A stretch of DNA of 64,000 nt from Mustelus asterias (Eukaryota), in assembly GCF_964213995.1 (NCBI RefSeq), contig NC_135813.1, positions 2,170,001 to 2,234,000 of the forward strand, read 5' to 3'. Every line of letters starts with the position of its first letter. The stretch's first letter is position 1. The notes under the pieces were generated by a model. It made no database searches. It was given only the letters and a program-made list of their open reading frames with translations, and had not been told where the DNA came from. A program made the translations under genes and the position numbers. Below are positions 3,450 through 63,100 of this stretch, in pieces.

Positions 3450-3522
3450 TGCATCAGCGATCTTGGTGGGTAATGTCATCCGTTAAGCTCAGTTAGCAAA
3501 TATTCTGTTTACATCATCTGCA
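3450..3522 (-). ncRNA. SNORD24: box C/D snoRNA U24
   Basis: Minus strand TGCAGATGATGTAAACAGAATATTTGCTAACTGA...CCACCAAGATCGCTGATGCA closely matches vertebrate U24; TGCA/TGCA terminal stem; lies in RPL7A intron 3. Confidence 0.95.
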
Positions 3523-3927: not shown

Positions 3928-4341
3928 CTATGCGATAGCGACCAGGTGGCATTGAATCCCTACAGTACAGGAGGTCATTCGACCCATCGAGTCTGTATCA
4001 ACTACAATCCCACCCAGGCCCTATTACCACATGACACATTTATCCTGCTAATCCTCCTCAGTAGGGAATGCCACACTAAGTTCCTGAGTGCCGCGCACAC
4101 ATCATTTATGTTCCATTTTGAACAGCTCATTGTAATATTTCCTCTCTGCATTGACTGAACTGCTGGGCTTCCAGCAATTCCCACCACAGATCTCCCAACA
4201 TCTGGAACCTCAGCACTGCTTCACCCTCACGAGGATTTAGTAAGGCTGTATCCCTATCAAATGTCAGTGTTAATACCACACTAACACCACTTATTCACAA
4301 CTGAATTGTGCTCACTGCAGTTTTCAGATTCCCAAACTCAC

Positions 4342-9005: not shown

Positions 9006-9459
9006 ATATGGGGTAAATCTTTCAGGACTGAGGTGAGGAGAAATTTCTTCATCCAGAGGATGGTAAATGTGTGGAATTCACGACCACAGAAAGTAGTTGA
9101 GGCCAAAACGTTGTGTGATTTTGAGAAGAAATTAGATATAGCTGTTGGGGTTAATGGGATTGAGGGATATGGGAGGAAGGGGGGATCAGGATATTGAATT
9201 CGATGATCAGCCATGATCAAAATGGATGGCGGAGCAGGCTCGAAGGGCCGAATGGCCTCCTCCTGCTTCTAGTTTCTATGTATAAGTATTTTCTCTTTCT
9301 TCTACTTTTGATGCTCCAATAACAATGGCCATGAAACGGCTTCTTCTGAATTAAACATTGCAATGCTTCACTCCAACCACAAGTTTCTCGCAGAGGAATC
9401 AGTCAAAAACACAGAGAGAGGCCATTCGGCCCATTGTGCTGAAACTAGTCTTGGGGACG

Positions 9460-9767: not shown

Positions 9768-9844
9768 GTGAGGACCCGGCTCCATTCTCCAGAAACGATC
9801 CCGGGTAGATCCCCAACATTAACGCGTTTATTATATCAATATAT

Positions 9845-11056
9845 GGTCAGTGCTGAGGGAGTGCCGCACTGTCAGAGGGTCAGTGCTGAGGGAGTGCCGC
9901 ACTGTCAGAGGGTCAGTGCTGAGGGAGTGCCGCACTGCCAGAGGGTCAGTACTGAGGGAGTGCCGCACTGTCACAGGGTCAGTGCTGAGGGAGTGCCGCA
10001 CTGTCAGAGGGTCAGTACTGAGGGAGTGCCGCACTGTCAGAGGGTCAGTGCTGAGGGAGTGCCGCACTGCCAGAGGGTCAGTACTGAGGGAGTGCCGCAC
10101 TGTCACAGGGTCAGTGCTGAGGGAGTGCCGCACTGCCAGAGGGTCAGTGCTGAGGGAGTGCCGCACTGTCAGAGGGTCAGTACTGAGGGAGTGCCGCACT
10201 GTCAGAGGGTCAGTACTGAGGGAGTGCCGCGCTGTCAGAGGGTCAGTACTGAGGGAGTGCCGCACTGTCAGAGGGTCAGTGCTGAGGGAGTGCTGCACTG
10301 CCAGAGGGTCAGTACTGAGGGAGTGCCGCACTGTCAGAGGGTCAGTGCTGAGGGAGTGCCGCACTGTCAGAGGGTCAGTACTGAGGGAGTGCCGCACTGT
10401 CAGAGGGTCAGTACTGAGGGAGTGCCGCACTGTCAGAGGGTCAGTGCTGAGGGAGTCTCGCACTGTCAGAGGGTCAGTACTGAGGGAGTGCCGCACTGTC
10501 AGAGGGTCAGTACTGAGAGAGTGCCGCACTGTCAGAGGGTCAGTACTGAGGGAGTGCCGCACTGTCAGAGGGTCAGTACTGAGGGAGTGCCGCACTGTCA
10601 GAGGGTCAGTACTGAGGGAGTGCCGCACTGTCAGAGGGTCAGTACTGAGGGAGTGCCGCACTGTCAGAGGGTCAGTACTGAGGGAGTGCCGCACTGTCAG
10701 AGGGTCAGTGCTGAGGGAGTGCCGCACTGTCAGAGGGTCAGTGCTGAGGGAGTGCCGCACTGTCAGAGGGTCAGTACTGAGGGAGTGCCGCACTGTCAGA
10801 GGGTCAGTGCTGAGGGAGTGCCGCACTGTCGGAGGGTCAGTGCTGAGGGAGTGCCGCACTGTCAGAGGGTCAGTCGTGAGGGAGTGCCGCACTGTCGGAG
10901 GGTCAGTACTGAGGGAGTGCCGCGCTGTCAGAGGGTCAGTCGTGAGGGAGTGCCGCACTGTTGGAGGGTCAGTACTGAGGGAGTGCCACGCTGTCAGAGG
11001 GTCAGTCGTGAAGGAGTGCCGCGTTGTCGGAGGGTCAGTACTGAGGGAGTGCTGCA
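9845..11056 (+). repeat. 33-bp minisatellite A (GAGGGAGTGCCGCACTGTCAGAGGGTCAGTRCT), ~36 copies, running into a DeuSINE-like body (11057-11275)
   Basis: Directly visible tandem array. Confidence 0.97.
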
Positions 11057-12307
11057 TTATTGGAGGGCTTATCTTTCAGATGAAATGTTAAACCAAAACC
11101 CAATTTGCCCCTCAGGTGGATGTAAAGGATTCTGCAGCCACCACTTTGAAAGAGAGCAGGCGTGTTCTCAGTTGTAGTCCTTAATCAACTTAACTGAAAA
11201 CAGATTATCTAGCCATTTATCTCATTGCGGTTCATGGGATCTTGCTATTTGCAAATTGGCTGCCTTGTTTCTTTCATTGTAGGTTAATGGAATGCTATCC
11301 TTTAATTTGAGTGGAATTGAATGTAAAAGTAAGGATGTTATGCTTCAGTTATACAGGAAACTGATAAGACCTCGTGTCAAATACTGTGTAGTTTGTGGTC
11401 TCCTTATTTAAGGAAGGATGTAAATGTGTTAGATGCAGTATAGAGATTTATTAAATTGATATCTAGAATGAGTGGGTTATCTAATGAGGAAGATTGATTC
11501 CCTTGACTAACAAGAATCTCACGTTATCAGGATAGATGAGAAAGTGGAATTCAAAACACAAACAGATCAGCCATGATCTTATTGAATGGCAGTGCAGGCT
11601 TGAGGGGCTGAATGGCCTCCTTCTATTTGTATGTTGTTATTGCAGCCGTGCCTGTACTTTAGCAGTAGTGATGCACTCTGGGTGTTCATAGATCAATAAA
11701 TATTTCTTTCATTACTCCGTTAACAGTGTTTGGTGTTTCTCAAGCACCATTTATTTCCCGTGTCAGACAATTGCCTCCTGGATTTCTGCAAGTGCTGCTT
11801 TATATGGTTTTAGAAACTGAGGTTGTACAGTAGAAGGAGATGGTGGACATATAATACTAATCTTGACTCAGTTTACAAGGTTGCTGTGAGATAGATAGGT
11901 GGATATATGGAAAAAGCACCTATTGATTCAGCCAATGTGTCCTACACAGTTATGATCCCTCATGCATCACAGTACAGACACTCCTCACCCACCCAAAAGG
12001 TATAATCTTCTGCGAAAGGCAGAAAACAAAATACAATCCCAGGCCAAATGTGGGAGTGGGGGCATGGAGATTTCCTCTCCAATTCCAGAGCAGTTCAGAA
12101 CTTTTGAGCGAAGCCATGATGGGTGGTGTGGTTGTCAGAGCCTGGGTTGTGCAGCAGCTTCCAGTGTGTGCTGACAGGGAAGGCCAGCTACCAAATACAA
12201 AACCGAAATGATGCAGAAAGGCTGACTAAAACCAGACAGATAGACAATGCAAGCAAGCACATAACCATCCCCTGTTATTGTACAAACAAACATTTGTCTT
12301 CTTTTAG

Positions 12308-19605: not shown

Positions 19606-19808
19606 GTGAGTTTCTGCCCCGCGCGCGGAGAGGCTGGGCCCGGGGAGCGCGGTTACCGACACCGGGGAAGGGAGTGACGATCCCCGAGGCTGTGCTGACT
19701 CCAGATCCGGCCTGTAGGCCCGGGAGCGGACAGGACTTCAACATTATCCTGTGTCCCAGGTGAGAATGTCACCAAAAATACCCATCATGGGTAAAGGATA
19801 GGACAATA

Positions 19809-22586
19809 CAGCACTGACCCTCTGACAGTGCGGCACTCCCTCAGTACTGACCCTCTGACAGTGCGGCACTCCCTCAGTACTGACCCTCTGACAGTGCGGC
19901 ACTCCCTCAGTACTGACCCTCTGACAGTGCAGCACTCCCTCAGTACTGACCCTCTGACAGTGCGGCACTCCCTCAGCACTGACCCTCTGACAGTGCGGCA
20001 CTCCCTCAGCACTGACCCTCTGACAGTGCGGCACTCCCTCAGTACTGACCCTCTGACAGTGCGGCACTCCCTCAGTACTGACCCTCTGACAGTGCAGCAC
20101 TCCCTCAGCACTGACCCTCTGACAGTGCGGCACTCCCTCAGCAGTGACCCTCTGACAGTGCAGCACTCCCTCAGTACTGACCCTCTGACAGTGCGGCACT
20201 CCCTCAGTACTGACCCTCTGACAGTGCGGCACTCCCTCAGCACTGACCCTCTGACAGTGCGGCACTCCCTCAGTACTGACCCTCTGACAGTGCGGCACTC
20301 CCTCAGTACTGACCCTCTGACAGTGCGGCACTCCCTCAGCACTGACCCTCTGACAGTGCGGCACTCCCTCAGCACTGACCCTCTGACAGTGCAGCACTCC
20401 CTCAGTACTGACCCTCTGACAGTGCGGCACTCCCTCAGTACTGACCCTCTGACAGTGCGGCACTCCCTCAGTACTGACCCTCTGACAGTGCGGCACTCCC
20501 TCAGCACTGACCCTCTGACAGTGCGGCACTCCCTCAGCAGTGACCCTCTGACAGTGCAGCACTCCCTCAGTACTGACCCTCTGACAGTGCGGCACTCCCT
20601 CAGCACTGACCCTCTGACAGTGCGGCACTCCCTCAGTACTGACCCTCTGACAGTGCGGCACTCCCTCAGTACTGACCCTCTGACAGTGCGGCACTCCCTC
20701 AGCACTGACCCTCTGACAGTGCGGCACTCCCTCAGCACTGACCCTCTGACAGTGCGGCACTCCCTCAGCACTGACCCTCTGACAGTGCGGCACTCCCTCA
20801 GTACTGACCCTCTGACAGTGCGGCACTCCCTCAGCACTGACCCTCTGACAGTGCAGCACTCCCTCAGTACTGACCCTCTGACAGTGCGGCACTCCCTCAG
20901 TACTGACCCTCTGACAGTGCGGCACTCCCTCAGCACTGACCCTCTGACAGTGCTGCACTCCCTCAGCACTGACCCTCTGACAGTGCGGCACTCCCTCAGT
21001 ACTGACCCTCTGACAGTGCGGCACTCCCTCAGCACTGACCCTCTGACAGTGCGGCACTCCCTCAGCACTGACCCTCTGACAGTGCGGCACTCCCTCAGCA
21101 CTGACCCTCTGACAGTGCGGCACTCCCTCAGTACTGACCCTCTGACAGTGCGGCACTCCCTCAGTACTGACCCTCTGACAGTGCGGCACTCCCTCAGCAC
21201 TGACCCTCTGACAGTGCAGCACTCCCTCAGTACTGACCCTCTGACAGTGCGGCACTCCCTCAGCATTGACCCTCTGACAGTGCGGCACTCCCTCAGTACT
21301 GACCCTCTGACAGTGCAGCACCCCCTCAGCACTGACCCTCTGACAGTGCGGCACTCCCTCAGTACTGACCCTCTGACAGTGCAGCACTCCCTCAGCACTG
21401 ACCCTCTGACAGTGCGGCGCTCTCTCAGCACTGACCCTCTGACAGTGCTGCACCCCCTCAGCACTGACCCTCTGACAGTGCTGCACCCCCTCAGCACTGA
21501 CCCTCTGACAGTGCAGCACTCCCTCAGCACTGACCCTCTGACAGTGCGGCGCTCCCTCAGCACTGACCCTCTGACAGTGCGGCACTCCCTCAGCACTGAC
21601 CCTCTGACAGTGCGGCACTCCCTCAGCACTGACCCTCTGACAGTGCGGCACTCTCTCAGCACTGACCCTCTGACAGTGCGGCACTCTCTCAGCACTGACC
21701 CTCTGACAGTGCGGCGCTCTCTCAGCACTGACCCTCTGACAGTGCTGCACTCCCTCAGTACTGACCCTCTGACAGTGCGGCACTCCCTCAGCACTGACCC
21801 TCTGACAGTGCGGCACTCCCTCAGCACTGACCCTCTGACAGTGCTGCACTCCCTCAGTACTGACTCTCTGACAATGCGGCACTCCCTCAGTACTGACCCT
21901 CTGACAGTGCGGCACTCCCTCAGCACTGACCCTCTGACAGTGCGGCACTCCCTCAGCACTGACCCTCTGACAGTGCGGCGCTCCCTCAGCACTGACCCTC
22001 TGACAGTGCGGCGCTCCCTCAGCACTGACCCTCTGACAGTGCGGCGCTCCCTCAGCACTGACCCTCTGACAGTGCGGCGCTCCCTCAGCACTGACCCTCT
22101 GACAGTGCGGCGCTCCCTCAGTACTGACCCTCTGACAGTGCGGCACTCCCTCAGCACTGACCCTCTGACAGTGCGGCGCTCCCTCAGTACTGACCCTCTG
22201 ACAGTGCGGCACTCTCTCAGTACTGACCCTCTGACAGTGCGGCACTCTCTCAGTACTGACCCTCTGACAGTGCGGCGCTCCCTCAGTACTGACCCTCTGA
22301 CAGTGCGGCACTCCCTCAGCACTGACCCTCTGACAGTGCGGCACTCCCTCAGCACTGACCCTCTGACAGTGCGGCACTCCCTCAGTACTGACCCTCTGAC
22401 AGTGCGGCACTCCCTCAGAACTGACCCTCTGACAGTGCGGCACTCCCTCGGCACTGACCCTCTGACAGTGCGGCACTCCCTCGGTACTGACCCTCTGACA
22501 GTGCGGCACTCCCTCGGTACTGACCCTCTGACAGTGCGGCACTCCCTCGGTACTGACCCTCTGACAGTGCGGCACTCCCTCGGTAC
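19809..22586 (-). repeat. 33-bp minisatellite A, inverted orientation, ~84 copies
   Basis: Directly visible tandem array, reverse complement of 9845-11056 unit. Confidence 0.97.
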
Positions 22587-23332
22587 TACACTGCCAATAT
22601 GAACCAAATTTCATTATTCTCTGGAAAGCAACTTGAACCAACAGCCTCTGACCAAGTAGTTAACAGAAAACTGGGACCCCAATCTCTGGATGTTTCCATT
22701 TCGACACTTTCAGGTTGTCACAAACTTGGGGCCTTGTCTCTACATTTAGGGGTAGGCATGTACAGATTGGAGTTTAGGAGAATGAGAGATGAGCTTGAAA
22801 CGGGTAAGATTCTGAGGAGGGACTTGGCTGGGTGGATGCTGAGAGGATGTTTCTGCTCATGGGCGTACCTACAACTTAGGATTGCAGTTTGAAATGAAGA
22901 GGTTTCCTCTGGAAGACGGAGTTGCGTTGGATTTGCTTCTCTGAAGGTTGTTTGATTTGGTACTCGGTCTCAGAGCTGTGGAGGCTGGGATGTTGACTAT
23001 ATTTAAAGAGAATTTTGATTGTCAGGGAGTTGAGAGTTTTGGCGATGGTCGGAAGTGGAGTTGAGGCCACAATCGGGTGAGCCTTGACCTTATGGGATAG
23101 CAGAGCAGGCTCAGGGGACCAAATGGCCTATTCCTGCTTTAATATTCTGTGCGCTGTCTTGTCAGCATCTGAGTTCCAGGCTCGTACCCAAACCCCTGGC
23201 TATTGAATTTAGGCAGCTTACCTCTGTGGGACTGAACACAGGAAATTTTGGATGAGCGTGTAGATTACGGTTGAGAGATTTGTAATAATGCTGCTTTGTG
23301 TATTTTCCCTGGGGGAGGCACAGGCGGCCAGG

Positions 23333-29374: not shown

Positions 29375-30785
29375 CACTGGGGTACAATTTCCCCACACAC
29401 TGACTCTCACTGGGGTACAGGTCCCACACACACTGACTCTCACTGGGGTACGGGTCCCACACACACTGACTCTCACTGGGGTACGGGTCCCACACACTGA
29501 CTCTCACTGGGGTACGGGTTCCACACACACTGACTCTCACTGGGGTACGGGTTCCACACACACTGACTCTCACTGGGGTACGGGTTCCACACACACTGAC
29601 TCTCACTGGGGTACGGGTCCCACACACACTGACTCTCACTGGGGTACGGGTCCCACACACACTGACTCTCACTGGGGTACGGGTCCCACACACACTGACT
29701 CTCATTGGGGTACAGGTCCCACACACACTGACTCTCACTGGGGTGCGGGTCCCACACACACTGACTCTCACTAGGGTACGGGTCCCACACACACTGACTC
29801 TCACTGGGGGTACAGATCTCACACACGCTGACCCTCACTGGGGTATGGATTCCACACACACTGACTCTCACTGGGGTACGGGTCTCACACATACTGACTC
29901 TCACTGGGTTACGGGATCCACACATACGGACTCTCACTGGGGTACGGGTTCCACACACACTGACTCTCACTGGGGTACGGGTTCCACACACACTGACTCT
30001 CACTGGGGTACGGGTCCCACACACACTGACTCTCACTGGGGTACGGGTCCCACACACACTGACTCTCACTGGGGTACGGGTTCCACACACATTGACTCTC
30101 ACTGGGGTACGGGTCCCACACACACTGACTCTCACTGGGGTACGGGTCCCACACACACTGACTCTCACTGAGGGACGGGTCCCACACACACTGACTCTCA
30201 CTGGGGTACAGGTCCCACACACACTGACTCTCACTGGGGTGCGGGTCCCACACACACTGACTCTCACTAGGGTACGGGTCCCACACACACTGACTCTCAC
30301 TGGGGGTACAGATCTCACACACGCTGACCCTCACTGGGGTATGGATTCCACACACACTGACTCTCACTGGGGTACGGGTCTCACACATACTGACTCTCAC
30401 TGGGTTACGGGATCCACACATACGGACTCTCACTGGGGTACGGGTTCCACACACACTGACTCTCACTGGGGTACGGGTTCCACACACACTGACTCTCACT
30501 GGGGTACGGGTCCCACACACACTGACTCTCACTGGGGTACGGGTCCCACACACACTGACTCTCACTGGGGTACGGGTTCCACACACATTGACTCTCACTG
30601 GGGTACGGGTCCCACACACACTGACTCTCACTGGGGTACGGGTCCCACACACACTGACTCTCACTGAGGGACGGGTCCCACACACACTGACTCTCACTGG
30701 GGTACGTGTTCCACACACACTGACTCTCACTGGGAGACGGGTCCCACACACTGACTCTCACTGGGGGACGGGTCCCACACACACT
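29375..30785 (+). repeat. 33-bp minisatellite B (CACACACACTGACTCTCACTGGGGTACGGGTCC), ~43 copies, with 496-bp higher-order duplication
   Basis: Directly visible tandem array. Confidence 0.96.
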
Positions 30786-31339
30786 GGCTGTCTCTGTGTT
30801 AAATTTGTTGCTTGTTCACTGTGCTAAGGAGGAATCTGGAGCCCATCTGTCTTTAACATTGGTTTATTCACATAATTCGGAGAACGCAGGCACAATCTCG
30901 TTTTCCTTTCCCCAGTTAGTAATTCTCACGTATAACTGGAGCGTATGCTTCATTGTCAGAGGATTGTAACATTAACATCCTGTATCTTTCCAACTGATTT
31001 TATTCACTCCACCATTCGCGGCTGTGTGTTCAGGTCCCTGGGCCCTAAACTCTGGAATGTCCTCCCTGAGCCATGCTACTTCTCTGCCTCTGTCTCTTCC
31101 TTTTAGACCTAAAGCTATCACTTGGACCAAGTTCTAATGTATGAAATTTTGTCTGCTTTACTGAGCAGTGAAGCACCTTGGGATGTTTTACGACAGGAGC
31201 GGCGCTATATAAGTTCAAGTTCTAATGATGAGTGGCAGCCGGCTATTCGAACATGGAGGGAATCACCTGATGCTGTGTGACCTGCTGTCCACATGTGGCA
31301 ATTTCTGGCTGGAATGAAAGTGAACGGTCAGAGCTGGGG

Positions 31340-35476: not shown

Positions 35477-35695
35477 GTGCGAGCCGGGGAGTCACTGATG
35501 AAGCTGGTATCAGACCTGAAGCAGTTCCTGATCCTCAATGACTTTCCCTCTGTGAATGAAGCCATTAACCAGCGGAAGCAGCAGCTCCGAAACCTGCAGG
35601 AAGAATGTGACAAAAAGCTGATCACCCTGAGAGACGAGATCGCAGTCGATCTGTACGAACTGGAAGAAGAATATTACTCCTCCAGGTACAAATAG
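35477..35695 (+). CDS. MED22: MED22 third coding exon (terminal for 140-aa short isoform; internal donor after 35685 for long isoform)
   Basis: [30 protein letters not shown]...[15 protein letters not shown]-stop. Confidence 0.97.
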
Positions 35696-35809: not shown

Positions 35810-36830
35810 CACCCTCATAATCCCCCCCCCCCCCTCGCCGTGACGCCCTGCCAGCCCCCCCCCCGGCCATGGCGCCCTGCCAGCACCCCCCCCCCCCCCC
35901 CCCACCGTGACGCCCTGCCAGCCCCCCCCCCCCCACCGCCGTGACGCCCTGCCAGCCCCCCCCCCCCCCACCGCCGTGACGCCCTGCCAGCCCCCTCCGC
36001 CACAACGCCCTCATAACCCCCCACCGCCATGACGCCCTGCCAGCCCCCTCCCGCCGTGACGCCCTGCCAGCCCCCTCCCGCCGTGACGCCCTGCCAGCCC
36101 CCTCCGCCACGACGCCTTCATAACCCCCCCCCCCCTCCGCCATGACGCTCTGCCAGACCCCCCCCCGCCGTGATGCCTGCCAGACCCCCCCCTGCCATGA
36201 CGCCCTGCCAGCCCCCCCTCCGCCATGACGCTCTGCCAGCCCCCCCCCCCCGCCGTGATGCCTGCCAGACCCCCCCCCCTGCCATGACGCCCTGCCAGCC
36301 CCCCCTCCGCCATGACGCCCTGCCAGTCCCCCCTCCGCCATGACGCTCTGCCAGCCACCACCCAGTGATGCCCTGTCAGCCCCCCCCCCCACCGCCGTGA
36401 CACCTGCCAGCCCTCCCCGCCATGACGCCCTGCCAGCCCTCACCCCAGCCGTGACGCCCTGCCAGCCCCCCCCACCGCCATGACGCCCTGCCAGCCCCCC
36501 CCCACCGCCGTGACGCCCTGCCAGCCCCCCCCCCACCGCCATGACGCCCTGCCAGCCCCCCCCACCGCCGTGATGCCCTGCCAGCCCCCCCCACCGCCAT
36601 GACGCCCTGCCAGCCCCCCCCCCACCGCCATGACGCCCTGCCAGCCCCCCCACCGCCGTGACGCCCTGCCAGCCTCCCCCCCCCGCCCTGCCAGCCCCCT
36701 CCCCGCCGTGATGCCCTGCCAGCCCCCTCCCCCCCTCCCCGCCGTGACGCCCTGCCAGCCCCCTCCCCGCCGTGACGCCCTGCCAGCCCCCTCCGCCGCG
36801 ACGCCCTCGCGAACCCCGCCCCCCCGCCAT
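35810..36830 (+). repeat. C-rich minisatellite (CCGCCRTGACGCCCTGCCAG-Cn), ~27-33-bp unit
   Basis: Directly visible; variable poly-C runs. Confidence 0.93.
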
Positions 36831-37363
36831 GACATCTGTGCATACTTTGTGGTAAATGTGGATTTCTTTGAGGAGGGGATATCTTGATATTTACGATCTT
36901 GCTGATGTTATTCCTCATGCTCCTAACTGCCACCCACGAGAAATGCAAGTGTTTTTGTTTTCACTGTGATGTGTCTTGACTTTTGGTTCTAGTTGAGACT
37001 GTTTGGCCACACTCCATATCGCATCTTCCTCCATTGAGGGCAGTCCTGGTCTAACATCGTGGGGGAGTGGGGGTGTGGGTGTGTATTCATTCTTATCCTC
37101 AACTTAACAAATTCCTGATGCGTTAAACCATTTTGAGTGACCTTAAGGATTCTTCCCTCCCATCCCTGTTGCAGTTTTCTGTGTTGAATCCACAGTGAAA
37201 CCCCCAGCATGCAAACAGACCACAGAAAGGCTGCTTTATTCAAAAACAACAACCCCACACAAAGATGCTGACCAGACGGTGAATCTTTGTGTTTTCTGGC
37301 AATGTCGAGCTAAAACATTCCTAAGTGCAATTCTGAAGAAGTCCCCATGTTGCAGCAGCTGTT

Positions 37364-37553
37364 TTCTTTTTTAAATTCAATCCAATCCAATTCAAAGTCT
37401 CAACAAGTGAGACATTCCAGATCCCAGCTGACAAGACAGGCAAGCCTCTTCCTGTCTTGGGCTTGATCTACATGATCCAAGCTGTTAGGAGCAGGCATTG
37501 CACCCCCTCCAGTGATTGATCTTATTTGCATCTTAGCCAAATGGCCGAGATGC
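37364..37553 (-). mobile_element. candidate U2-snRNA-headed SINE
   Basis: Head GCATCTCGGCCATTTGGCTAAGAT (22/24 to U2 nt 4-27), unique body, A-rich tail, flanking direct repeat GCAGCTGTT. Confidence 0.6.
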
Positions 37554-38988
37554 AGCTGTTGTCGGAGTTTATCCTTTCCTGCCACCTAGTGTGTGGAGCT
37601 TGAAGTTGCTTATTCAGCGTTAAAGCGAGTGGACTGTCACTTTAAGATGATGATTTCTGTGGGGGAACTTCCTGTCCCTGGTTTTACCATAATGAGAATC
37701 TAAGAATTTTTATAATGCAAACTAGAATTTAATTTCACAGATCTTTCTTAGATTAGGAAGAGATTCTTTATATCTTTTATAATTTTATATATCTATAATA
37801 TGATCCTGCAGTCTATGAATGCACAAACATGCTGTTCCTCAGACTTTAAATGTCTCACCATGTCTGATCTGTGTAAAATTTGATGGGGAAATATTTTTTG
37901 CATTTGTTTGTTTGTGGTAATATGACATTGTGGCCGTAAAGGGAAAGGTTGGTTACACACATTTTCCCTTCACACCAGAATATTACATTCAATGGGTTAT
38001 TGTAACCAGAGTAATGAAGAAATTACTCTATAAATAATAATCGCTTCACATTAACTTTCTGTGCAATACATGTTACGCTTGGATGCTGCTAAAGCTGCAG
38101 AACAGACAGAATCCCAGTGCAGCTCAGCACCCATCACTCCACTCCCACTCCAGGGTATCCCATAATTTCTAATGTCCCACTCATCCAAAATATCTTGTAT
38201 CATCACGGGGTTCATAAATGCCTTGCACATTCCATAACATCAGTGCTGTAAGCTGCCTGTTTATAAAACTAGTATAACTGTCGCAAGTTTAACACACACC
38301 ACATTTTCCAGTATTGCGTACATCACTTAGTATCAAAGAGGCCATTTAAGTGTACATCCCATAATATCACTCTGAATTAGTTGTACGTCCTTGAATATTT
38401 CCATGTGTATCACATCATATCCTGAGTGCTTTATTTCATGTACATCCCATAACATCAATGTTATCCATTCAATGTACATCCCATAATATTCCCGATATAC
38501 TCCATAATAATACTCTGTGCAGCCCATAACACAATGTAGCCCCAGCTGTTTAGTGAGTCACCTTGCTGTTCAGTAACTGGGAGTCAGTGAAGAATAGCTG
38601 TTGTCCTGGCCTGAAGACCAGCTCTGTCCCTGGAATCTCCGTTCCAGCCTTTGGAGACACTGGGCTCAGAGTAACTTCCCAAACACTGGGTTATGGAGAG
38701 TGCAGCTTCCATCTCTGGCCTGGAGAGTGTGCTGACCGCAGCCACAGAGGCTACAATTGTTCTCAGTGTCCTTGGGTTAGCCAGGAGGGAAAGGAAATCA
38801 GCCTCCGCTCCCTCTCCTGATCACCATCTCAGGACAGTGACTCCTGCCAGAAAGGACACCTCCGTAATCGAGCAAGAACATGGTTGAGTTCCGCTGTGAT
38901 ACCACAAGCAGTTGAATAGCTTATCACAGGGGCTTGCCCAACGAATGGCTAAATGGTGGAGTAGGAACGCAGAGGAGCTGCTGACAGA

Positions 38989-42087: not shown

Positions 42088-42322
42088 CTACAGCCTTTGG
42101 GATGGTGCTGACCTCCCGCTCTGTGAGGCGTACCGGAGAGGGGAGGAGGAGGAGGAGGAGGAGGAGGAAGGGGTGGTGACACCCGAAGAGGAGATGGTGA
42201 CAGAGACGGCCGGGCCTGCTGTGACTGCAGGAGGTGAAGCTAATGGCAGAGTGGCACTAAGCAATGCCACTGCCCAACCGCAGGTCAATGAGCATGGAGC
42301 AGGGAGCACAGATCCTGTCTGA
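42088..42322 (+). CDS. MED22: MED22 alternative last exon (long, Surf-5b-type isoform)
   Basis: Polypyrimidine tract + aag acceptor; YSLWDGADLPLCEAY matches DLPLCEAY of the mammalian long isoform; phase matches donor at 35685. Confidence 0.88.
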
Positions 42323-45730: not shown

Positions 45731-46499
45731 GGTACAGGTCCCACACACACTGACTCTCACTGGGGTACAGGTCCCACACACACTGACTCTCACTGGGGTA
45801 CGGGTCCCACACACACTGACTCTCACTGGGGTACGGGTCCCACACACTGACTCTCACTGGGGTACGGGTCCCACACACACTGACTCTCACTGGGGTACGG
45901 GTTCCACACACACTGACTCTCACTGGGGTACGGGTCCCACACACACTGACTCTCACTGGGGTACGGGTTCCACACACACTGACTCTCACTGGGGTACGGG
46001 TCCCACACACACTGACTCTCACTGGGGTACGGGTCCCACACACACTGACTCTCACTGGGGTACGGGTCCCACACACACTGACTCTCACTGGGGTACGGGT
46101 CCCACACACACTGACTCTCACTGGGGTACGGGTCCCACACACACTGACTCTCACTGGGGTACGGGTCCCACACACACTGACTCTCACTGGGGTACGGGTC
46201 CCACACACACTGACTCTCACTGGGGTACGGGTTCCACACACACTGACTCTCACTGGGGTACGGGTCCCACACACACTGACTCTCGCTGGGGTACGGGTCC
46301 CACACACGCTGACTCTCACTGGGGTACGGGTCCCACACACACTGACTCTCACTGGGGTACGGGTCCCACACACACTGACTCTCACTGGGGTACGGGTCCC
46401 ACACACACTGACTCTCACTGGGGTACGGGTCCCACACACACTGACTCCCACTGGGGTACGGGTCTCACACACACTGACTCTCGCTGGGGTACGGGTCCC
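45731..46499 (+). repeat. minisatellite B, ~23 copies, filling most of PIERCE1 intron 2
   Basis: Directly visible. Confidence 0.96.
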
Positions 46500-46609
46500 G
46501 TGAATTTTTGAAACTGGGCTGTGTTTGTGAAATTTGTGGGCACCGGAGTTTGGTAAAATTTGGTCTAATTTGTGTAAAATGCCCGATTTGAGGAAGTGGT
46601 TAATCTTAC

Positions 46610-51075: not shown

Positions 51076-52069
51076 CTTCGATAATTACTCTCAGATTTTT
51101 TGTCTAAGTCATTAATATCCATTGTAAATAGCTGAGGCCCCAGCCGCAATCCTTGCAGAACTTCATTAGTCAAAAGCTTCCAACTTGAAGATGTTCCCTT
51201 TATCCCAGCCCTCTGCTTCCTGTCCTTTAACCAATCCTCTCTCCATGCTAATATATTACCCCACAATATATGAGCCGTTATCATGCCCATTAACTTATTA
51301 TGTGGCACTTATTGTGTGAATGTCTTTTGGAAATCCAAGTACAGTACATCTACTGGTTCCCTTTTATCTATCCTACCAATTACATCCTCAAAAATAATCT
51401 CTTAACCTCAAGGGAATTCAAGCCTGATCTATGTAACCATCACCCAAAATATAATCCTCAAAACCCCAGTAAAATATTGATGAATCTACGTTGCGCCTAA
51501 TTTAAGGCCACACATTGTTCCATTGGTGCCTTTTGCTTTTCCTCCTGATCTGTACATTTTCCATTTTAGAACTGCCCACTTATCCTGTGAACCAGCGATT
51601 CTCACGCCAATAAACCTCTGTACGCACTGACACAATCCTGGGGACCCCCTCTAAACACTGTCACAGAGGTCTTCGGGGAAGGAGAAGGCCCTTTGACCCT
51701 GCTATCCTATTTGATAAAATCATTGGCTGACCTGGCTGAGGATTCTCATAGCCCTTAACTCCTTTCTCTATCAATCTGTCCAACTCAGCCTTGAATAAAT
51801 TCAATGACCCAGCTCACCCTCTGGGATCGATAATTTTACAGACTGATGTCCCTCAGAGAAGAAATTCCTCCTCACTGGGATTGCTGTTATTCATAAACTG
51901 TGTCCCCTGGTTCGAGTCACTGTCACACAAAGAAATATCCTCCCAGTATCCATCTGATCAAATTCCCCAAACCAAATGTTTCAATAAGATCACCTTGCAG
52001 CCTCAAAATCCCAATGGGTACAGGCTCAATCTGTTCAGTCTGTCTTTATAAGAGAAACTCTTAGCTTCA

Positions 52070-55000
52070 GGGACCCCCTGTAAAAACTGACACACTCCCT
52101 GGGGACCCCGTTGTAAATACTGACACACTCCCCCCCGGGCACCCCCTGTAAGTACTGACACACACCCTGGGGAACTCCCTTTAAATACTGACACACTCCC
52201 TGGGGAACTCCCTTTAAATACTGACACACACCCTGGGGAACTCCCTTTAAATACTGACACACTCCCCCCGGGCACCCCCTGTAAATACTGACACACTGCC
52301 TGGGAACACCCTGTAAATACTGACACATTCCCTGGAGACCCCCTGTAAATACTGACACACTCCCCGGGGACCCCCCTGTAAATACTGACACACCCCGGGG
52401 ACCCCCCTGTAAATACTGACACACTCCCCGGGGACTCCCTGTAAATACTGACACACTCCCCGGGGACCCTCTGTAAATACTGACACACACCCACGGGGAC
52501 CCCCTTGTAAATACCGACACACTCCCAGGGGACCCCCTGTAAAAACTGACACACTCCCCGGGGACCCTCCTGTAAATACTGACACGGTCCCCGGGGACTC
52601 CCTGTAAATACTGACACACACCCACGGGGACCCCTGTAAATACTGACACACTCCTCAGGGACCCCCTGCAAATGCTGACACACTCCCCGGGGACCCCCTG
52701 TAAATACTGACATACTCCTCAGGGACCGCCTGTAAATACTGACACACTTCCCACGGACCCCCCTGTAAACGCTGACACACTCCCCGGGGACCTCTCTGTA
52801 AATACTGACACACTCCCCCTGGGGGTTCCCTCTGTAATACTGACACACTCCCTGGGGACCACCCTGTAAATACTGACACACTCCCTGGGGACCACCCTGT
52901 AAATACTGACACACTCCCCGGGGACCCCACTGTAAATACTGACACACTCCCCCTGGGGGTTCCCTCTGTAATACTGACACACTCCCTGGGGACCACCCTG
53001 TAAATACTGACACACTCCCTGGGGACCACCCTGTAAATACTGATACACTCCCCAGGGACCCCCTGTAAATACTGACACACTCCCCGGGGACCCCCTGTAA
53101 ATACTGACACACTCCCCGGGGACCCCCTGTAAATACTGACACACTCCCCGGGAAGCCTCCTGTAAATACTGACACACCCCGGGGACCCCCTGTAAATACT
53201 GACACACACCCCGGGGACCCCCTGTAAATACTGACACACTCCCCGGGGACCCCCTGTAAATACTGACACACTTCCCAGGAACCCTCCTGTAAATACTGAC
53301 ACACCCCGGGGACCCCCTGTAAATACTGACACACTCCCCGGGGACCCCCTGTAAATACTGACACACTTCCCAGGAACCCTCCTGTAAATACTGACACACC
53401 CCGGGGACCCCCTGTAAATACTGACACACTTCCCAGGAACCCTCCTGTAAATACTGACACACTCCCCGGGAACCCCCTGTAAATACTGACACACACCCCG
53501 GGGACCCCCTGTAAATACTGACACACACCCCGGGGACCCCCTGTAAATACTGACACACCCCGGGGACCCCCTGTAAATACTGACACACACCCCGGGGACC
53601 CCCTGTAAATACTGACACACTCCCCGGGAACCCTCCTGTAAATACTGACACACCCCGGGGACCCCCTGTAAATACTGACACACTCCCCGGGGATCTCCTG
53701 TAAATACTGACACACTCCCCGGGGATCTCCTGTAAATACTGACACACACCCCGGGGATCTCCTGTAAATACTGACACACACCCCGGGGATCTCCTGTAAA
53801 TACTGACACACTCCCCGGGGATCTCCTGTAAATACTGACACACTCCCCGGGGATCTCCTGTAAATACTGACACACTCCCCGGGGATCTCCTGTAAATACT
53901 GACACACTCCCCGGGGACCTCCATAAATACTGACACACTCCCCGGGGACCCCTTGTAAATATTGACACTCTCTGGGGACCCCCCTGTGAATACTGACACA
54001 CTCCCCTGGGGACCCCCTGTAAATACTGACACACTCCCCTGGGGACCCCCTGTAAATACTGACACACTCCCCGGGGATCTCCTGTAAATACTGACACACT
54101 CCCCGGGGACCCCTTGTAAATATTGACACTCTCTGGGGACCCCCCTGTAAATACTGACACACTCCCCCCGGGGGATCCCTCTGTAAATACTGACACACTC
54201 CCTGGGGACCCCCCTGTAAACACTGACACACTCCCCGGGGACCTCTCTGTAAATACTGACACTCCCCCTGGGTGTTCCCTCTGTAATACTGACACACTCC
54301 CTGGGGACCACCCTGTAAATACTGACACACTCTCCGGGGACCCCCTGTAAATACTGACACACTCCCCCGGGACCCCCTGTAAATACTGACATACACCCCA
54401 GGGATCCCCTGTAAATACTGACACACACCCCGGGGACCCCCTGTAAATACTGACACACTCTCTGGGGATCTCCTGTAAATACTGACACACACCCTGGGGA
54501 TCTCCTGTAAATACTGACACACTCCCCGGGGACCTCCATAAATACTGACACACTCCCCCCGGGGATCCCTCTGTAAATACTCACACACTCCCTGGGGACC
54601 CCCCTGTAAACACTGACACACTCCCCGGGGATCTCTCTGTAAATACTGACACTCCCCCCGGGGGTTCCCTCTGTAATACTGACACACTCCCTGGGGACCA
54701 CCCTGTAAATACTGACACACTCCCCGGGGACCCCCCTGTAAATACTGACACACTCCCCGGGGACCCCCTGTAAATACTGACACACTCCCCGGGGACCCCC
54801 TGTAAATACTGACACACTCCCCGGGGACCCCCTGTAAATACTGACACACACCCCGGGGATCTCCTGTAAATACTGACACACTCCCCGGGGACCCCCTGTA
54901 AATACTGACACACACCCCGGGGATCTCCTGTAAATACTGACACACTCCCCGGGAACCCTCCTGTAAATACTGACACACTCCCCTGGGGACCCCCTGTAAA

Positions 55001-56045
55001 TACTGACACACTCCCCCCGGGGGATCCCTCTGTAAATACTGACACACTCCCTGGGGACCCCCCTGTAAACGCTGACACACTCCCCGGGGACCTCTCTGTA
55101 AATACTGACACACTCCCCCTGGGTGTTCCCTCTGTAATACTGACACACTCCCTGGGGACCACCCTGTAAATACTGACACACTCCCCGGGGACCTCTCTGT
55201 AAATACTGACACACTCCCCCTGGGTGTTCCCTCTGTAATACTGACACACTCCCTGGGGACCACCCTGTAAATACTGACACACTCTCCGGGGACCCCCTGT
55301 AAATACTGACACACTCCCAGGGACCCCCTGTAAATACTGACACACACCCTGGGGATCTCCTGTAAATACTGACACACTCCCAGGGACCCCCTGTAAATAC
55401 TGACACACACCCTGGGGATCTCCTGTAAATACTGACACACTCCCAGGGACCCCCTGTAAATACTGACACACACCCTGGGGACCCCCCTGTAAATACTGAC
55501 ACACTCTCCGGGGACCCCCTGTAAATACTGACACACTCCCCGGGGACCCCCTGTAAATACTGACACACACCCTGGGGATCTCCTGTAAATACTGACACAC
55601 TCCCTGGGGACCCCCCTGTAAATACTGACATACACCCCAGGGATCCCCTGTAAATACTGACACACTCGCCGGGGACCCCTTGTAAATATTGACACTCCCT
55701 GGGGACTCCCCTGTAAATACTGACACACTCTCTGGGGACCCTCCTGTAAATACTGACACGCTCCCCCCCGGGGACCCCCTGTAAATACTGACACACTCCC
55801 CAGGATCCCCTGTAAATACTGACAAACCCCCTGGGGACCCACCTGTAAATACTGACACACTCCCCGGGGACCCCCCTGTAAATACTGACACACTCCCCAG
55901 GATCCCCTGTAAATACTGACACACTCCCCGGGGACCCCCCTGTAAATACTGACACACTCCCCGGGGACCCCCCTGTAAATACTGACACACTCTCTGGGGA
56001 CCCCCCTGTAAATACTGACACACTCTCTGGGGACCCCCCTGTACA
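52070..56045 (+). repeat. ~32-34-bp minisatellite D (CTGTAAATACTGACACACTCCCCGGGGACCCC), ~120 copies, PIERCE1 intron 1
   Basis: Directly visible; invariant TGTAAATACTGACAC core with variable C/G part. Confidence 0.96.
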
Positions 56046-56443
56046 CTAAGACAGCCTATGTTGATACCACGTTCTGAACTCACAAGTTAGATCCCCAGAG
56101 CCGTAAATGTTATTCATTAATGTACAACAGAAAAAAAAATAATAGTAATAGTGATCTGATAATCCAACAAAGATTATAAATCCCTCCAAAACTCCAAATC
56201 CAAACTGGAACAACCCCAGTGAGAAACTCTGAACCGCGGCCACAATTTGCCCCAAGCGTTGGCAGCTGTAAAGAGCAAATTGCTGGAAAATCTACCCTTC
56301 CAGCCCATAACCAGACCCCCTGTCTCCCTCCATGTGTCCCTCCCTCCATCCTCTCCCTCTCCCCTTGTGTCTCTCCCTCGTTCCCTCCGCCTCTCTCCAT
56401 CCCTGTCTCCCCCCTCTCCCGGTTCAGTCCCCCTCTCCCGTAC

Positions 56444-56598
56444 CCGTATCCCTGGAAGCAGTCGGGATGCTCGAATCTCCGGGGAACCCCGGCTTTCACC
56501 CGGTAATACTGGCTGGTCCGGCCCGGGGCGGGAGGTTCAGGCTCGGCTTTAGTGTCCAGGTATTTCACACTCGGCTCCTTCACCCAGCACAGAGACAT
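56444..56598 (-). CDS. PIERCE1: PIERCE1 exon 1
   Basis: M...GRTSQYYRVKAGVPRRFEHPDCFQGY matches RTSDYYRV...PGRFNNPGWFRGY pattern; donor gtacgg in phase with exon 2. Confidence 0.9.
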
Positions 56599-56609
56599 TG
56601 CTACACTGC

Positions 56610-56622
56610 GTTTCCTAGCAAC
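56610..56622. promoter_or_regulatory. RFX X-box at PIERCE1 promoter
   Basis: GTTTCCTAGCAAC 12 nt upstream of the ATG; RFX factors drive ciliary genes; ETS-like ACCGGAAAT at 56644. Confidence 0.8.
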
Positions 56623-56707
56623 CGCCCAAACTGATACACTGTCACCGGAAATGCCTCACTGCCTCAATTCATCCATCCTTCCCCCCCTCCCCCTCCCCCC
56701 TCAGCCC

Positions 56708-58180
56708 CCACACACATTGACTCTCACTGGGGTACGGGTTCCACACACACTGACTCTCACTGGGGTACGGGTTCCACACACACTGACTCTCACTGGGGTA
56801 CGGGTCCCACACACACTGACTCTCACTGGGGTACGGGTCCCACACACACTGACTCTCACTGGGGTACGGGTTCCACACACACTGACTCTCACTGGGGTAC
56901 GGGTCCCACACACACTGACTCTCACTGGGGTACGGGTTCCACACACACTGACTCTCACTGGGGTACGGGTCCCACACACACTGACTCTCACTGGGGTACG
57001 GGTTCCACACACACTGACTCTCACTGGGGTACGGGTCCCACACACACTGACTCTCACTGGGGTACGGGTCCCACACACACTGACTCTCACTGGGGTACGG
57101 GTCCCACACACACTGACTCTCACTGGGGTATGGGTCCCACACACACTGACTCTCACTGGGGTACGGGTCCCACACACACTGACTCTCACTGGGGTACAGG
57201 TTCCACACACACTGACTCTCACTGGGGTATGGGTCCCACACACACTGACTCTCACTGGGGTACGGGTCCCACACACATTGACTCTCACTGGGGTATGGGT
57301 CAAAATAAAGGGGGGTCAGTTTAGGACAGAGTTGAGGAGGAACTTCTTCTCTCAGAGGGTGGTGAATCTCTGGAGTTCTCTGCCCACTGAAGTGGTGAGG
57401 CTACCTCGTTGAATATATTAAAATCACGGATAGATGGATTCCTGATCGGTAAGGGAATTAGGGGTTATAGGGATCAGGCGGGTAAGTGGAACTGATCCAC
57501 TTCAGATCAGTCACAATCTTATTGAATGGCGGGGTAGGCTCGAGGGACTAGATGGCCTACTCCTGCTCCTATTTCTTATGTTCTTATGTTTTTATGTCCC
57601 ACACACACTGACTCTCACTGGGGTATGGGTCCCACACACATCGTCTCTCACTGGGATACTGGTCCCACATACACTGACTCTCACTGGAGTACGAGTTTCA
57701 CACACACTGACTCTCACTGGGATAGGGGTCCCACACACACTGACTCTCACTGGGGTACAGGTCCCACACACACTGACTCTCACTGGGTACGCGTTCCACA
57801 CACATGACTCTCACTGGGGGACGCGTTCCACACACACTGACTCTCACTGGGGTACGGGTCCCACACACGTTGACTCTCACTGGGGGACGCGTTCCACACA
57901 CACTGACTCTCACTGGGGTACGGGTCCCTCACACTGACTCTCACTGGGGTGCGGGTCCCACACACACTGACTCTCACTGGGGTACGGGTCCCACACACAC
58001 TGACTCTCACTGGGGTACTGGATCCACACACACTGACTCTCACTGGGGGACGCGTTCCACACACGCTGACTCTCACTGGGGTACGGGATCCACACACACT
58101 GACTCTCACTGGGGGACGCGTTCCTCACACACCGACTCTCACTGGGGTACGGGATCCACACACACTGACTCGCACTGGGA
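56708..58180 (+). repeat. minisatellite B, two blocks (~18+18 copies) separated by a CR1 3' fragment (57300-57596)
   Basis: Directly visible; insert near-identical to 26054-26340. Confidence 0.94.
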
Positions 58181-60123: not shown

Positions 60124-63100
60124 TAGAAACATAGAAAAACTACAGCACAAAACAGGCCCTTCAGCCCCACAAGTTGTGCCGAACATATCCCTACCTTTTA
60201 GGCCTACCTATAACCCTCCATCCTATTAAGTCCCATGTACTCATCCAAGAGTCTCTTAAAAGACCCTATTGAGTTCGCCTCCACCACCACTGACTGCAGC
60301 CGATTCCACTCGCCCACCACCCTCTGTGTGAAAAGCTTCCCCCTAACATTTCCCCTGTACCTACCCCCCAGCACCTTAAACCTGTGTCCTCTCGTAGCAG
60401 CCATTTCCACCCTGGGAAAAAGCCTCTGAGAGTCCACCCGATCTATGCCTCTCAACATCTTATATACCTCTATTAGGTCTCCTCTCATCCTACATCTCTC
60501 CAAGGAGAAAAGACCGAGCTCCCTCAGCCTATCCTCATAAGGCATGCCACTCAATCCAGGCAACATCCTTGTAAATCTCCTCTGCACCCTTTGAATCTTT
60601 TCCACATCCTTCCTGTAATGAGGCGACCAGAACTGAGCACAGTACTCCAAGTGGGGTCTGACCAGGGTCTTATATAGCTGCATCATTATCCCCGGACTCC
60701 TAAACTCAATCCCTCGATTGATAAAGGCCAGCACACCATACGCCTTCTTAACCACCTCCTCCACCTGCGGGGCCGATTTTAGAGTCCTATGGACCCGGAC
60801 CCCAAGGTCCTTCGGATCCTCTACAGTACTAAGAGTCTTTCCCTTTATATTGTACTCCTTCATCCCATTTGACCTGCCAAAATGGACCACTACGCATTTA
60901 TCTGGGTTGAAGTCCATCTGCCACTTCTCCGCCCAGTCTTGCATCCTATCTATGTCCCTCTGTAACTTCTGACATCCCTCCAGACTATCCACAACCCCAC
61001 CAACCTTCGTGTCGTCGGCAAACTTACCAACCCATCCCTCCACTTCCTCGTCCAGGTCATTTATGAAAATGACAAACAGCAAGGGTCCCAGAACAGATCC
61101 CTGGGGCACACCACTGGTGACCGACCTCTATTTAGAAAAAGACCCATCTATACCCACTCTCTGCCTCCTTTGGGCAAACACAGTAAGAATTTTAACAACA
61201 CCAGGTTAAAGTCCAACAGGTTTATTTGGTAGCAAAAGCCACACAAGCTTTCGGAGCTGCAAGCCCCTTCTTCAGGTGAGTGGGAATTCTGTTCACAAAC
61301 AGAGTTTATAAAGACACAGACTCAATTTACATGAATAATGGTTGGAATGCGAATACTTACAACTAATCAAGTCTTTAAGAAACAAAACAATGGGAGTGGA
61401 GAGAGCATCAAGACAGGCTAAAAAGATGTGTATTGTCTCTAGACAAGACAGCCAGTGAAACCCATCCTTTGGGCAAGCCAGTTCTGGATCCACAGAGCAG
61501 CAGCCCCTTGGATCCCATGCCCTCTCACTTTTTCTAGAAGCCTTGCATGGGGGACCTTATCGAACGCCTTGCTAAAATCCATATAAACCACATCATAGAA
61601 ATCATAGAAACCCTACAGTGCAGAACATAGAACATAGAACATAGAAAGCCACAGCACAAACAGGCCCTTCGGCCCACAAGTTGCGCCGATCACATCCCCA
61701 CCTCTAGGCCTATCTATAGCCCTCAATCCCATTAAATCCCATGTACTCATCCAGAAGTCTCTTAAAAGACCCCAACGAGTTTGCCTCCACCACCACCGAC
61801 GTCAGCCGATTCCACTCACCCACCACCCTCTGAGTGAAAAACTTACCCCTGACATCTCCTCTGTACCTACCCCCCAGCACCTTAAACCTGTGTCCTCTCG
61901 TAGCAACCATTTCAGCCCTTGGAAATAGCCTCTGAGAGTCTACCCTATCCAGACCTCTCAACATCTTGTAAACCTCTATCAGGTCACCTCTCATCCTTCG
62001 TCTCTCCAGGGAGAAGAGACCAAGCTCCCTCAACCTATCCTCATAAGGCATGCCCCCCAATCCAGGCAACATCCTTGTAAATCTCCTCTGCACCCTTTCA
62101 ATGGCTTCAACATCTTTCCTGTAATGAGGTGACCAGAACTGCGCGCAGTACTCCAAGTGGGGTCTAATCAGGGTCCTATAAAGCTGCAGCATTATCTCCC
62201 GACTCCTAAACTCAATCCCTCGATTAATGAAGGCCAGTACGCCGTACGCCTTCTTGACCGCATCCTCCACCAGCGAGGCCGATTTAAGAGTCCTATGGAC
62301 CCGGACCCCAAGGTCCTTCTGATCCTCTACACTGCTAAGAATGGTACCCTTCATATTATACTGCTGCTTCATCCCATTGGATCTGCCAAAATGGATCACC
62401 ACACACTTATCCGGGTTGAAGTCCATCTGCCACTTCTCCGCCCAGTCTTGCATTCTATCTATGTCTCGCTGCAACTTCTGACATCCCTCCAAACTATCCA
62501 CAACACCACCTACCTTGGTGTCGTCAGCAAACTTACCAACCCATCCCTCCACTTCCTCATCCAGGTCATTTATGAAAATGACAAACAGAAGGAGGCCATT
62601 CGGCCCATCGAGTCTGCACCGACCACCTACCGCTTTCCCTTCGTCAATGTGTTTAGTCACATTTTCGAAGAACTCCACCAGGCTCATAAGGCACGATCTG
62701 CCTTTGACAAAGCCATGCTGAGTATTCTTGAGCATACTAAACCTCTCTAAATGCTCATAAATCCTGTCCCTCAGGATCTCCTCCATCAGCTTACCAACCA
62801 CTGAGGTTAGACTCACCAGTCGGTAATTTCCTGGGCTATCCCTATTCCCCTTCTTGAAAATAGGAACCACATCTGCAATCCTCCAATCCTCCAGCACCTC
62901 TCCCGTCTCCATCGACGACGCAAAGATCATCGCGAGAAGCTCTGCAATCTCTTCCCTCGTCTCCCACAGTAACCTGGGGTACATCCCATCCGGACCCGGC
63001 GACTTATCTATCTTGATGCCATTCAAAGATTCCAGCACAACCTCTTTGTTAAAGTCCACATACTCAATCTTTTCAGTCCACCGCAAGCCTGCAGTACATC

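Follow-up and report, generated by a model that had tools for sequence, protein, structure and literature searches.

A U2 snRNA-headed SINE family in the shark Mustelus asterias and its likely mobilisation by a U2-targeting Keno-type LINE

Genomic context of the insertion

We analysed a 64,000-nucleotide stretch of the Mustelus asterias genome (NC_135813.1, positions 2,170,001 to 2,234,000; hereafter the window), in which a short retroposon on the minus strand is located between two plus-strand exons of MED22, within the last intron of the gene (Table 1), consistent with the original prediction that it lies antisense within the MED22 transcription unit. The 15 best homologs of the upstream exon are elasmobranch (shark and ray) MED22 proteins, with 97% to 100% identity. 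The frame of this exon reads on to a stop after YYSSRYK, and a short MED22 isoform is known from mammals; such an isoform would put the retroposon in or near the 3' UTR and not in an intron. The window also contains two SNORD36 and one SNORD24 snoRNA above the Rfam cut-offs (490–559, 2619–2697 and 3450–3522, minus strand), which we take to be those expected in the RPL7A introns of the Surfeit locus, several LINE fragments bearing a reverse transcriptase (e.g., 8135–9268 and 60204–61127), and long minisatellite arrays (9800–11100, 19750–22650, 29400–30800, 45800–46500 and 52000–57400) that yield spurious open frames.

The insertion is present at the orthologous site in all 4 other organisms sampled (X6, X12, X13 and X16), the contigs of which were aligned to window positions 36900–38100. 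Each passes from unique flanking sequence into the tail of the SINE, one spans the 5' junction as well, and they differ from the window there by 22 to 43 letters over 400 to 600. None of their contigs skips the SINE; the insertion is common to the 4 organisms, so that no orthologous empty site was found among them, and judging by this shared position, the window copy predates the split from these organisms. The SINE family is multi-copy in them too, as indicated by 696 to 2,334 matching contigs per run.

Table 1. Features of the retroposon copy and of its host gene, in window positions.
Feature	Position	Strand	Basis or remark
MED22 coding exon upstream of the insertion	35477–35692	+	Stop-to-stop frame; Pfam Med22, E 4e-18
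TSD at the 3' end of the element, GCAGCTGTT	37355–37363	+	Sequence
5'-truncated SINE copy	37364–37551	-	Family positions ~110–293; true U2 head and U4-like spacer missing
ATTGG/ATTGA-type repeats and A-rich tail	37364–37393	-	Sequence
3' body, likely diverged U2 nt 40–101	37379–37439	-	p ~0.03 for the window copy; p ≤ 0.001 for subfamily O
Hairpin at the U2 stem IIb position	37397–37413	-	Changed on both sides: U2 and subfamily O have C-G, the remaining 4 subfamilies U-A
Possible third, degenerate U2 5' module (weak)	37465–37482	-	p ~0.04 for the window copy, 0.012 for the subfamily consensus; uncorrected for the number of tests
TAAGATCAA, a repeat of U2 nt 22–30	37516–37524	-	Sequence against U2
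Internal second U2 module (U2 nt 4–27, 22/24), predicted hairpin	37530–37553	-	blastn against this genome's U2 gene; fold
TSD at the 5' end of the element	37552–37560	+	The 2 element-proximal bases also fit the element consensus
MED22 last coding exon, long isoform	42090–42322 (start approximate)	+	76% identity over 90 aa to the shark MED22 C-terminus

The window copy and its truncation

All the sequence features on which the original prediction was built are present: the direct repeat on both sides of the unit, the minus-strand start matching U2, here confirmed against the genome's own U2 gene, the short repeat of part of that match, and then the ATTGG-like repeats and the A-rich tail. The 9-mer of the direct repeat occurs 3 times in the window, both strands counted. 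The proposal that the unit begins at its U2 head did not hold, because the copy is 5'-truncated, the first 2 U2-matching bases are shared with the TSD and the motif that had been noticed is an internal second module. All 29 other copies fetched extend further in the 5' direction than the window unit, by 37 to 104 bp (medians), and 27 of them start within the first 24 nt of the true head. At the truncation junction, the element consensus and the TSD share a 2-nt microhomology. The copy is 94% identical to the consensus of its own subfamily, a consensus that includes the window copy itself or derives from its top hits. On these comparisons, the 190-bp unit is almost certainly a 5'-truncated SINE copy, the true head of which would lie approximately 110 bp further 5'.

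Rfam reported no U2 anywhere in the window at E ≤ 1, and by this full-structure criterion the window copy is not a functional U2 variant. The predicted fold of its RNA has a z-score of -4.49. The window copy is an inert intronic passenger.

Size, subfamilies and age of the family

A SINE-specific 15-mer has 2,818 + 2,908 = 5,726 exact matches in the genome, compared to 0 for the control; the family thus comprises at least 5,726 copies. When the 188-bp window unit was used as query, 2,247 first-look candidates yielded 41 matches; 30 loci were fetched, one of them being the window. Further analyses relied on 148 non-redundant copies from the collected loci, which represent the top hits of a few queries and not a random sample. 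The unit of the family is approximately 310 bp long, with an A-tail and TSDs, and near-full-length copies, assigned by best reference and identity, fall into 5 subfamilies with consensuses of 300 to 328 bp: a young subfamily (n = 30, 98.7% identity to the consensus), a second (n = 31, 94%), a third (n = 13, 92%), that of the window copy (n = 28, 93.1%) and an older subfamily, O (n = 28, 91%). Real flanks were scored for TSDs against mismatched ones, and a TSD filter was passed by 39 of the 148 copies, with TSDs of 9 to 32 bp (median 15). The copies tend to cluster, with 8 of 29 and 8 of 28 loci holding more than one. Eighty control stretches of 10 kb held 2 SINE copies, both in the same stretch; these stretches were taken at round-number positions on C1–C21, which is not a true random draw, and extrapolate to 1,100 to 33,000 copies genome-wide.

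At the level of the family, the original prediction of a U2-headed, TSD-flanked and A-tailed multi-copy retroposon in a cartilaginous fish is borne out. The sequence is not single-copy, since there are thousands of copies, and nothing points to a tRNA head: ARAGORN, which can miss diverged SINE heads, detected no tRNA gene in any of 6 loci or at window positions 36500–38500.

Two alternative views of the unit have to be weighed against this picture. According to one, the 190-bp unit would itself be a complete short family headed by U2 nt 4–27, which would account for the coincidence of its start with both a U2 module and a clean TSD, and a genuine monomeric U2-derived form does exist elsewhere (3 copies, see below). 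However, among 117 non-O copies, the window copy alone starts at family position 110 and one further copy at 114, and in the tree the window copy nests inside a full-length subfamily, so that this view, already largely refuted, is very improbable. According to the other, the copies would be independent U2 pseudogene chimeras rather than a propagating SINE. Although much of the SINE sequence is snRNA-derived, thousands of copies have one common multi-module structure and subfamily-diagnostic changes, and the 30 young copies average 98.7% identity to their consensus; the shared junctions refute the chimera view, to which we attach hardly any credence.

A mosaic of snRNA pieces

The references for U2, U1 and U4 were this genome's own genes. 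From 5' to 3', the family is laid out as a U2 head, a spacer with a piece of U4 (nt 23–47), an internal U2 module, hairpins, a 3' body and the A-tail. The consensus head is identical to nt 3–37 of the genome's U2 gene (35/35), and the identity ends at nt 37–40 in 4 subfamilies and at nt 35 in O, that is, approximately at the Keno site described below. The internal U2 module, located approximately 110 bp into the element, is present in all 5 subfamilies. Similarity of the spacer to U4 nt 23–47 is significant in O (p ≤ 0.001), the subfamily of the window copy (0.006) and the young subfamily (0.022), and nonsignificant in the other 2. A U2 origin of the spacer was rejected, being nonsignificant in 3 of 3 comparisons, with U4 nt 23–47 matched instead. 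No U4 piece was found in the window copy, and a U1 piece in that copy (p 0.044) was taken as a chance match.

The description of the remainder of the unit as non-U2 sequence stands only in part. The 3' body aligns with U2 nt 40–110 strongly in O and in 3 monomeric copies, where the alignment extends to U2 nt ~150, and weakly or nonsignificantly in younger forms. For U2 nt 40–101, the consensuses of the window copy's subfamily (0.09) and of the young subfamily (0.14) fall short of the significance reached by the window copy itself and by O (Table 1) as well as by the 3 monomeric copies (p ≤ 0.005). This alignment, strongest in O and the monomeric copies, suggests that the SINE family likely descends from a whole diverged U2, to which modules were added at the 5' end. 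Pieces of U1 (nt 2–42, or 64–95) are located upstream of 5 older O copies (L015:1696–1745, L233, L248, L250 and L253), and extra U2 pieces are found at the 5' side of several other copies. The monomeric element resembles a whole diverged U2 with an inserted hairpin (L005 near 1716–1900, L015 near 2036–2240, and L252), and may represent the ancestral form or else, like SINEU-3, a sister family.

The predicted fold of a young full-length copy has a z-score of -7.40. Across the 5 consensuses, we counted 8 two-sided (versus 2.05) and 18 one-sided pair-keeping variants and 28 pair-breaking variant types, using a structure derived from the same sequences. In 4 of the 5 subfamilies, a downstream antisense stretch is predicted to pair with the head, whereas O breaks most of these head-masking pairs. 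On the sense strand, young copies carry 35 A>G compared to 8 T>C changes, a bias that the older subfamilies lack (147 copies). This excess fits A-to-I editing of the folded RNA before reverse transcription. One copy, L194, has 13 A>G among 16 changes; L195 is its duplicate, the two lying on two small contigs, and their common sequence is likely a hyper-edited RNA written back into DNA.

Rfam reported no ribozyme or other known RNA family for the element, in the window or in 5 loci. Two full-length relatives reach a Rfam U2 score of 54 bits, compared to 190 for real genes, resting mainly on the head. Thus, full-length copies can pass the Rfam U2 cut-off, as these 2 do, and would be annotated as U2 genes.

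U2 arrays, Keno-type LINEs and the candidate enzyme

In the U2 arrays on C24, we found LINEs after which U2 continues with nt 38–191. These LINEs encode a ZCCHC3-type/CCHC ORF1, an APE endonuclease, a reverse transcriptase and zf-RVT (Pfam), and the closest solved structures to their protein are the L1 ORF2p (E 7e-70) and then R2 (5e-21). Keno is described as a U2-specific element of the Tx1 clade with an APE endonuclease (PMC4494074, PMC4640811), and U2 is reported to resume at nt 39 after Utopia, with the same 3' flank for Keno (PMC4640811). By their U2 site and domains, the array LINEs appear to fit Keno and not Utopia as described in the available part of the latter source. None of the Keno copies read in the C24 arrays has an unbroken ORF2. 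In one U2 array (L046, L047 and L049; G000:C24, ~44.81–44.94 Mb), with a period of 8,035 bp, the units read alternate between an intact U2 gene and a Keno-interrupted one, the Keno having its own U2 nt 5–35 head. At L052:2125–2200 and 3974–4050, L053:4159–4235 and L054:5202–5280, U2 nt 18–37 is reiterated at the Keno site and nt 38–48 are lost, possibly as scars of an abortive insertion that became amplified within the array. A second type of U2, with a 450-bp unit and 90% identity to the main type, is located at L105, L286 and L287 (G000:C21, ~28.06 Mb); C1 and C14 carry retrocopied blocks of it, and C8 another piece. Keno-type copies are also dispersed (1,937 first-look candidates).

Both Keno-type LINEs and some SINE copies sit in U2 genes at nt 38/39. 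In some units, nt 1–39 of the host U2 gene and the SINE head coincide, with unchanged U2 upstream DNA immediately before them. The locus L055, for instance, reads, in order, U2 upstream DNA (98% identical over 500 bp to an intact unit), a SINE from U2 +1, a U2-like duplication, a truncated Keno, U2 nt 39–53, a second SINE (99.3% to the young consensus) and U2 nt 39–191. Intact U2 units serve as empty sites for such U2-embedded copies, although as paralogous ones only. The second U2 type carries SINE and Keno insertions at the same site, with a full-length Keno following its nt 1–33. A pattern joining the SINE tail to U2 gave 11 matches at 10 places and none for the control; 9 of the places have recognisable SINE sequence (2 of the window copy's subfamily) and one has a short tail remnant only.

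The association extends to dispersed copies. Thirty dispersed Keno 3'-end loci were collected and the query's own was dropped; a SINE is present at 9 of the remaining 29, compared to 1 of 80 control 10-kb stretches (Fisher p 2e-5), and in 5 cases it lies directly downstream. The target sites of 39 dispersed SINE copies match U2 nt -7 to -1 at 2.62 of 7 positions, compared to 1.74 ± 0.17 in the null, and 0 of 2,000 null runs reached 2.62; the sites had a TSD score of at least 9 and a junction at -6 to +8, with U2-pattern loci and tandem neighbours excluded and approximately 3 doubtful rows remaining. The target site of the window copy itself matches U2 poorly. For Keno, 13 of the 29 loci gave a repeat, of which 4 were spurious (inside SINE heads) and 2 were duplicates of each other; the 8 unique target sites, determined by hand, average 2.75 of 7 against a null of 1.75, which is suggestive only.

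Taken together, the sequence evidence indicates that the SINE is very probably copied by the Keno enzyme. For the predicted mobilisation by L1/Tx1-type machinery, there is thus a probable Tx1-clade partner, but the support was found in the U2 arrays and at dispersed copies of Keno and not in the window, where the Tx1 fragments previously invoked were not recovered by blastn or tblastn with this genome's Keno as query. One weak reverse transcriptase hit in the window, with 33% identity, lies at 6491–6766.

Probable transcription from U2 loci

The 5' limit of the family is U2 +1, kept by 23 dispersed copies that share no bases upstream of it. Several copies carry more than the SINE. At L191, an 18-bp TSD encloses 1.65 kb of U2-array DNA with a SINE A-tail at its end, and TSD-bounded or in-gene copies have 13 and 32 nt of U2 upstream flank, the 13-nt piece being that of L194 and L195, a single event duplicated. 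Upstream U2 pieces end at nt 43–53, within the TSD span, in 4 of 4 cases. The U2-array DNA upstream of the SINE in TSD-bounded retrocopies shows that SINE-bearing U2 loci gave rise to RNA that was copied, at the least through read-through. Such retrocopies prove neither promoter-driven starts nor that most copies arise in this way; in those with flanks, the start lies upstream of +1, a position more readily explained by read-through than by initiation at the promoter. A cap-derived extra G at the 5' end is present in 5 of 23 copies, with no excess, and neither an octamer nor a shared promoter motif turned up for the second U2 type, which has a 260-bp spacer.

An exact master copy was not found among the 148 copies. 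A private deletion, absent from all others of the 148, marks the sole copy that follows the main U2 upstream region, the copies behind the second U2 type are 94% to 97% identical to their consensus, and no member of the window copy's subfamily was found behind a U2 upstream region with 2 exact flank patterns (2 and 7 matches). With only 10 places compared to at least 5,726 copies, U2-site insertions are rare and, for this reason, may be sinks and not sources. On balance, the sequences favour transcription of U2 loci as the main source of SINE copies, which we regard as likely.

We propose that Pol II, starting from the U2 promoter or reading through the array, would make the SINE RNA, in which case an internal promoter would be unneeded and the head would be renewed from the real U2. 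The RNA is predicted to fold into a chain of hairpins, in which, in 4 of the 5 subfamilies, the antisense stretch would pair with U2 nt ~7–36 and hide the splicing-active part. The Keno ORF2p would then reverse-transcribe the RNA from its A-tail at U2-like targets, with relaxed specificity. For the window copy, reverse transcription may have ended at the internal U2 hairpin, with the product joined to the target via the 2-nt microhomology. That the window copy comes from the U2-headed SINE family, and was likely copied by the U2-targeting Keno enzyme from RNA likely transcribed from source copies in U2 clusters, seems to us, as a combined statement, somewhat more probable than not. The fullest version of this reading, which we hold to be evenly poised, is that of a young SINE lineage parasitising the U2 gene: sources placed by Keno at nt 38/39 would take over the promoter and the first 38 nt as head, the RNA would mask the splicing-active bases and be A-to-I edited, and the lineage, likely independent of the crocodilian SINEU, would have grown as U2, U4 and U1 modules were stacked onto a whole diverged U2. 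If true, such a lineage would answer how promoter-less snRNA-headed SINEs are transcribed.

The competing explanations concern the enzyme and the origin of the RNA. Another element of the L1/Tx1 clade could mobilise the SINE, which would adjoin Keno since both favour similar A-rich or open sites. The SINE tail is not recognisably LINE-derived, its homology to the Keno tail being nonsignificant in 3 of 3 comparisons (p 0.08–0.21), and no significant similarity was found between the SINE and the Keno body; moreover, most SINE copies are dispersed, and the comparison with the Tx1/L1 elements of the genome covered Keno only. Nevertheless, the exact use of U2 nt 38/39 in 2 U2 types, the U2-like bias of dispersed target sites, the SINEs directly behind 5 of 29 Keno 3' ends and the clear Keno TSDs of 11 to 20 bp, which resemble those of the SINE, all argue against a different LINE, and we consider it improbable. 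The other explanation keeps the SINE and the Keno enzyme but traces the RNA to read-through transcripts of Keno or of unrelated host genes, with the head renewed by a template switch onto U2 snRNA and the copies in U2 genes being dead ends. The failure to match a master and the rarity of U2-site copies favour it, the U1 additions at the 5' side of older copies must come from template switches, and both template switching and flanking transcription have been invoked for SINEU in the available text of Kojima 2015 (PMC4494074). By contrast, each subfamily has a constant head–body junction, at the Keno site, and the retrocopies bounded by TSDs include spacer and upstream sequence of the U2 array that the mature snRNA lacks. 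We judge this second explanation unlikely, although less so than a different enzyme, and prefer transcription from the U2 loci.

Relationship to known elements

In several respects, the shark family resembles the crocodilian SINEU-1, -2 and -3 as far as the available text of Kojima 2015 (PMC4494074) describes them: a U2- or U1-derived head, a length below 500 bp, a poly(A) tail and TSDs; repeated addition of snRNA pieces at the 5' end, tandem insertions and an oligo-T inside; no LINE-derived tail, as Kojima reports for SINEU-1 and its LINEs; and, with Keno as the probable counterpart in the shark, a Tx1-clade partner related to Keno, itself U2-headed. The copy number of SINEU-1, ~7,700, is similar to the at least 5,726 of the shark family. 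The two differ in host (crocodilians versus an elasmobranch), target (Mariner-N4_AMi versus the U2 gene itself and U2-like sites) and partner (Tx1-Mar versus, probably, a U2-targeting Keno), and the U4-derived piece, the diverged U2 3' body and the young copies inside U2 genes set the shark family apart. The shark family works like SINEU and displays its testable features, the comparison with SINEU-1, -2 and -3 being one of description and not of sequence. The same text reports none outside crocodilians and states SINEU transcription to be an open question. In the literature searched, a scope that leaves Repbase, Dfam, Repbase Reports and most subscription papers outside, SINEU is described for crocodilians only, and we found no report of a snRNA-headed SINE in cartilaginous fishes. 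The family described here would represent a second vertebrate lineage of snRNA-headed SINEs, in which young copies occur and both a named candidate for the enzyme and candidate sources within U2 arrays can be pointed to, making the question of SINEU transcription testable.

Short non-autonomous elements that depend on R2 are known from rDNA. R2 and these elements are similar to the shark SINE in that an element within a multicopy RNA gene needs no promoter of its own, but differ in residing in Pol I-transcribed rDNA rather than in Pol II-transcribed snRNA genes, and no ribozyme family was reported by Rfam in the 5 SINE loci. Co-transcription of R2 with rDNA is cited in the available text of PMC4494074.

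SacSINE1 and the CmiSINEs are likewise short non-autonomous retroposons of cartilaginous fishes, but have a tRNA head, a Deu/CORE domain and an L2 tail, as described in the part of PMC5499810 at hand, in which the word "snRNA" does not occur, whereas no tRNA was detected in the U2-headed family. Keno, in the accessible descriptions, shares with the SINE the same U2 insertion site, a U2-derived 5' end, an A-tail and TSDs; it is autonomous, whereas the SINE is non-coding. Finally, Utopia, as far as described in the accessible text (PMC4640811), has the same 3' junction in U2 and inserts in tandem in U2 arrays, but encodes a restriction-like endonuclease, in contrast to the APE domain of the LINE found here.
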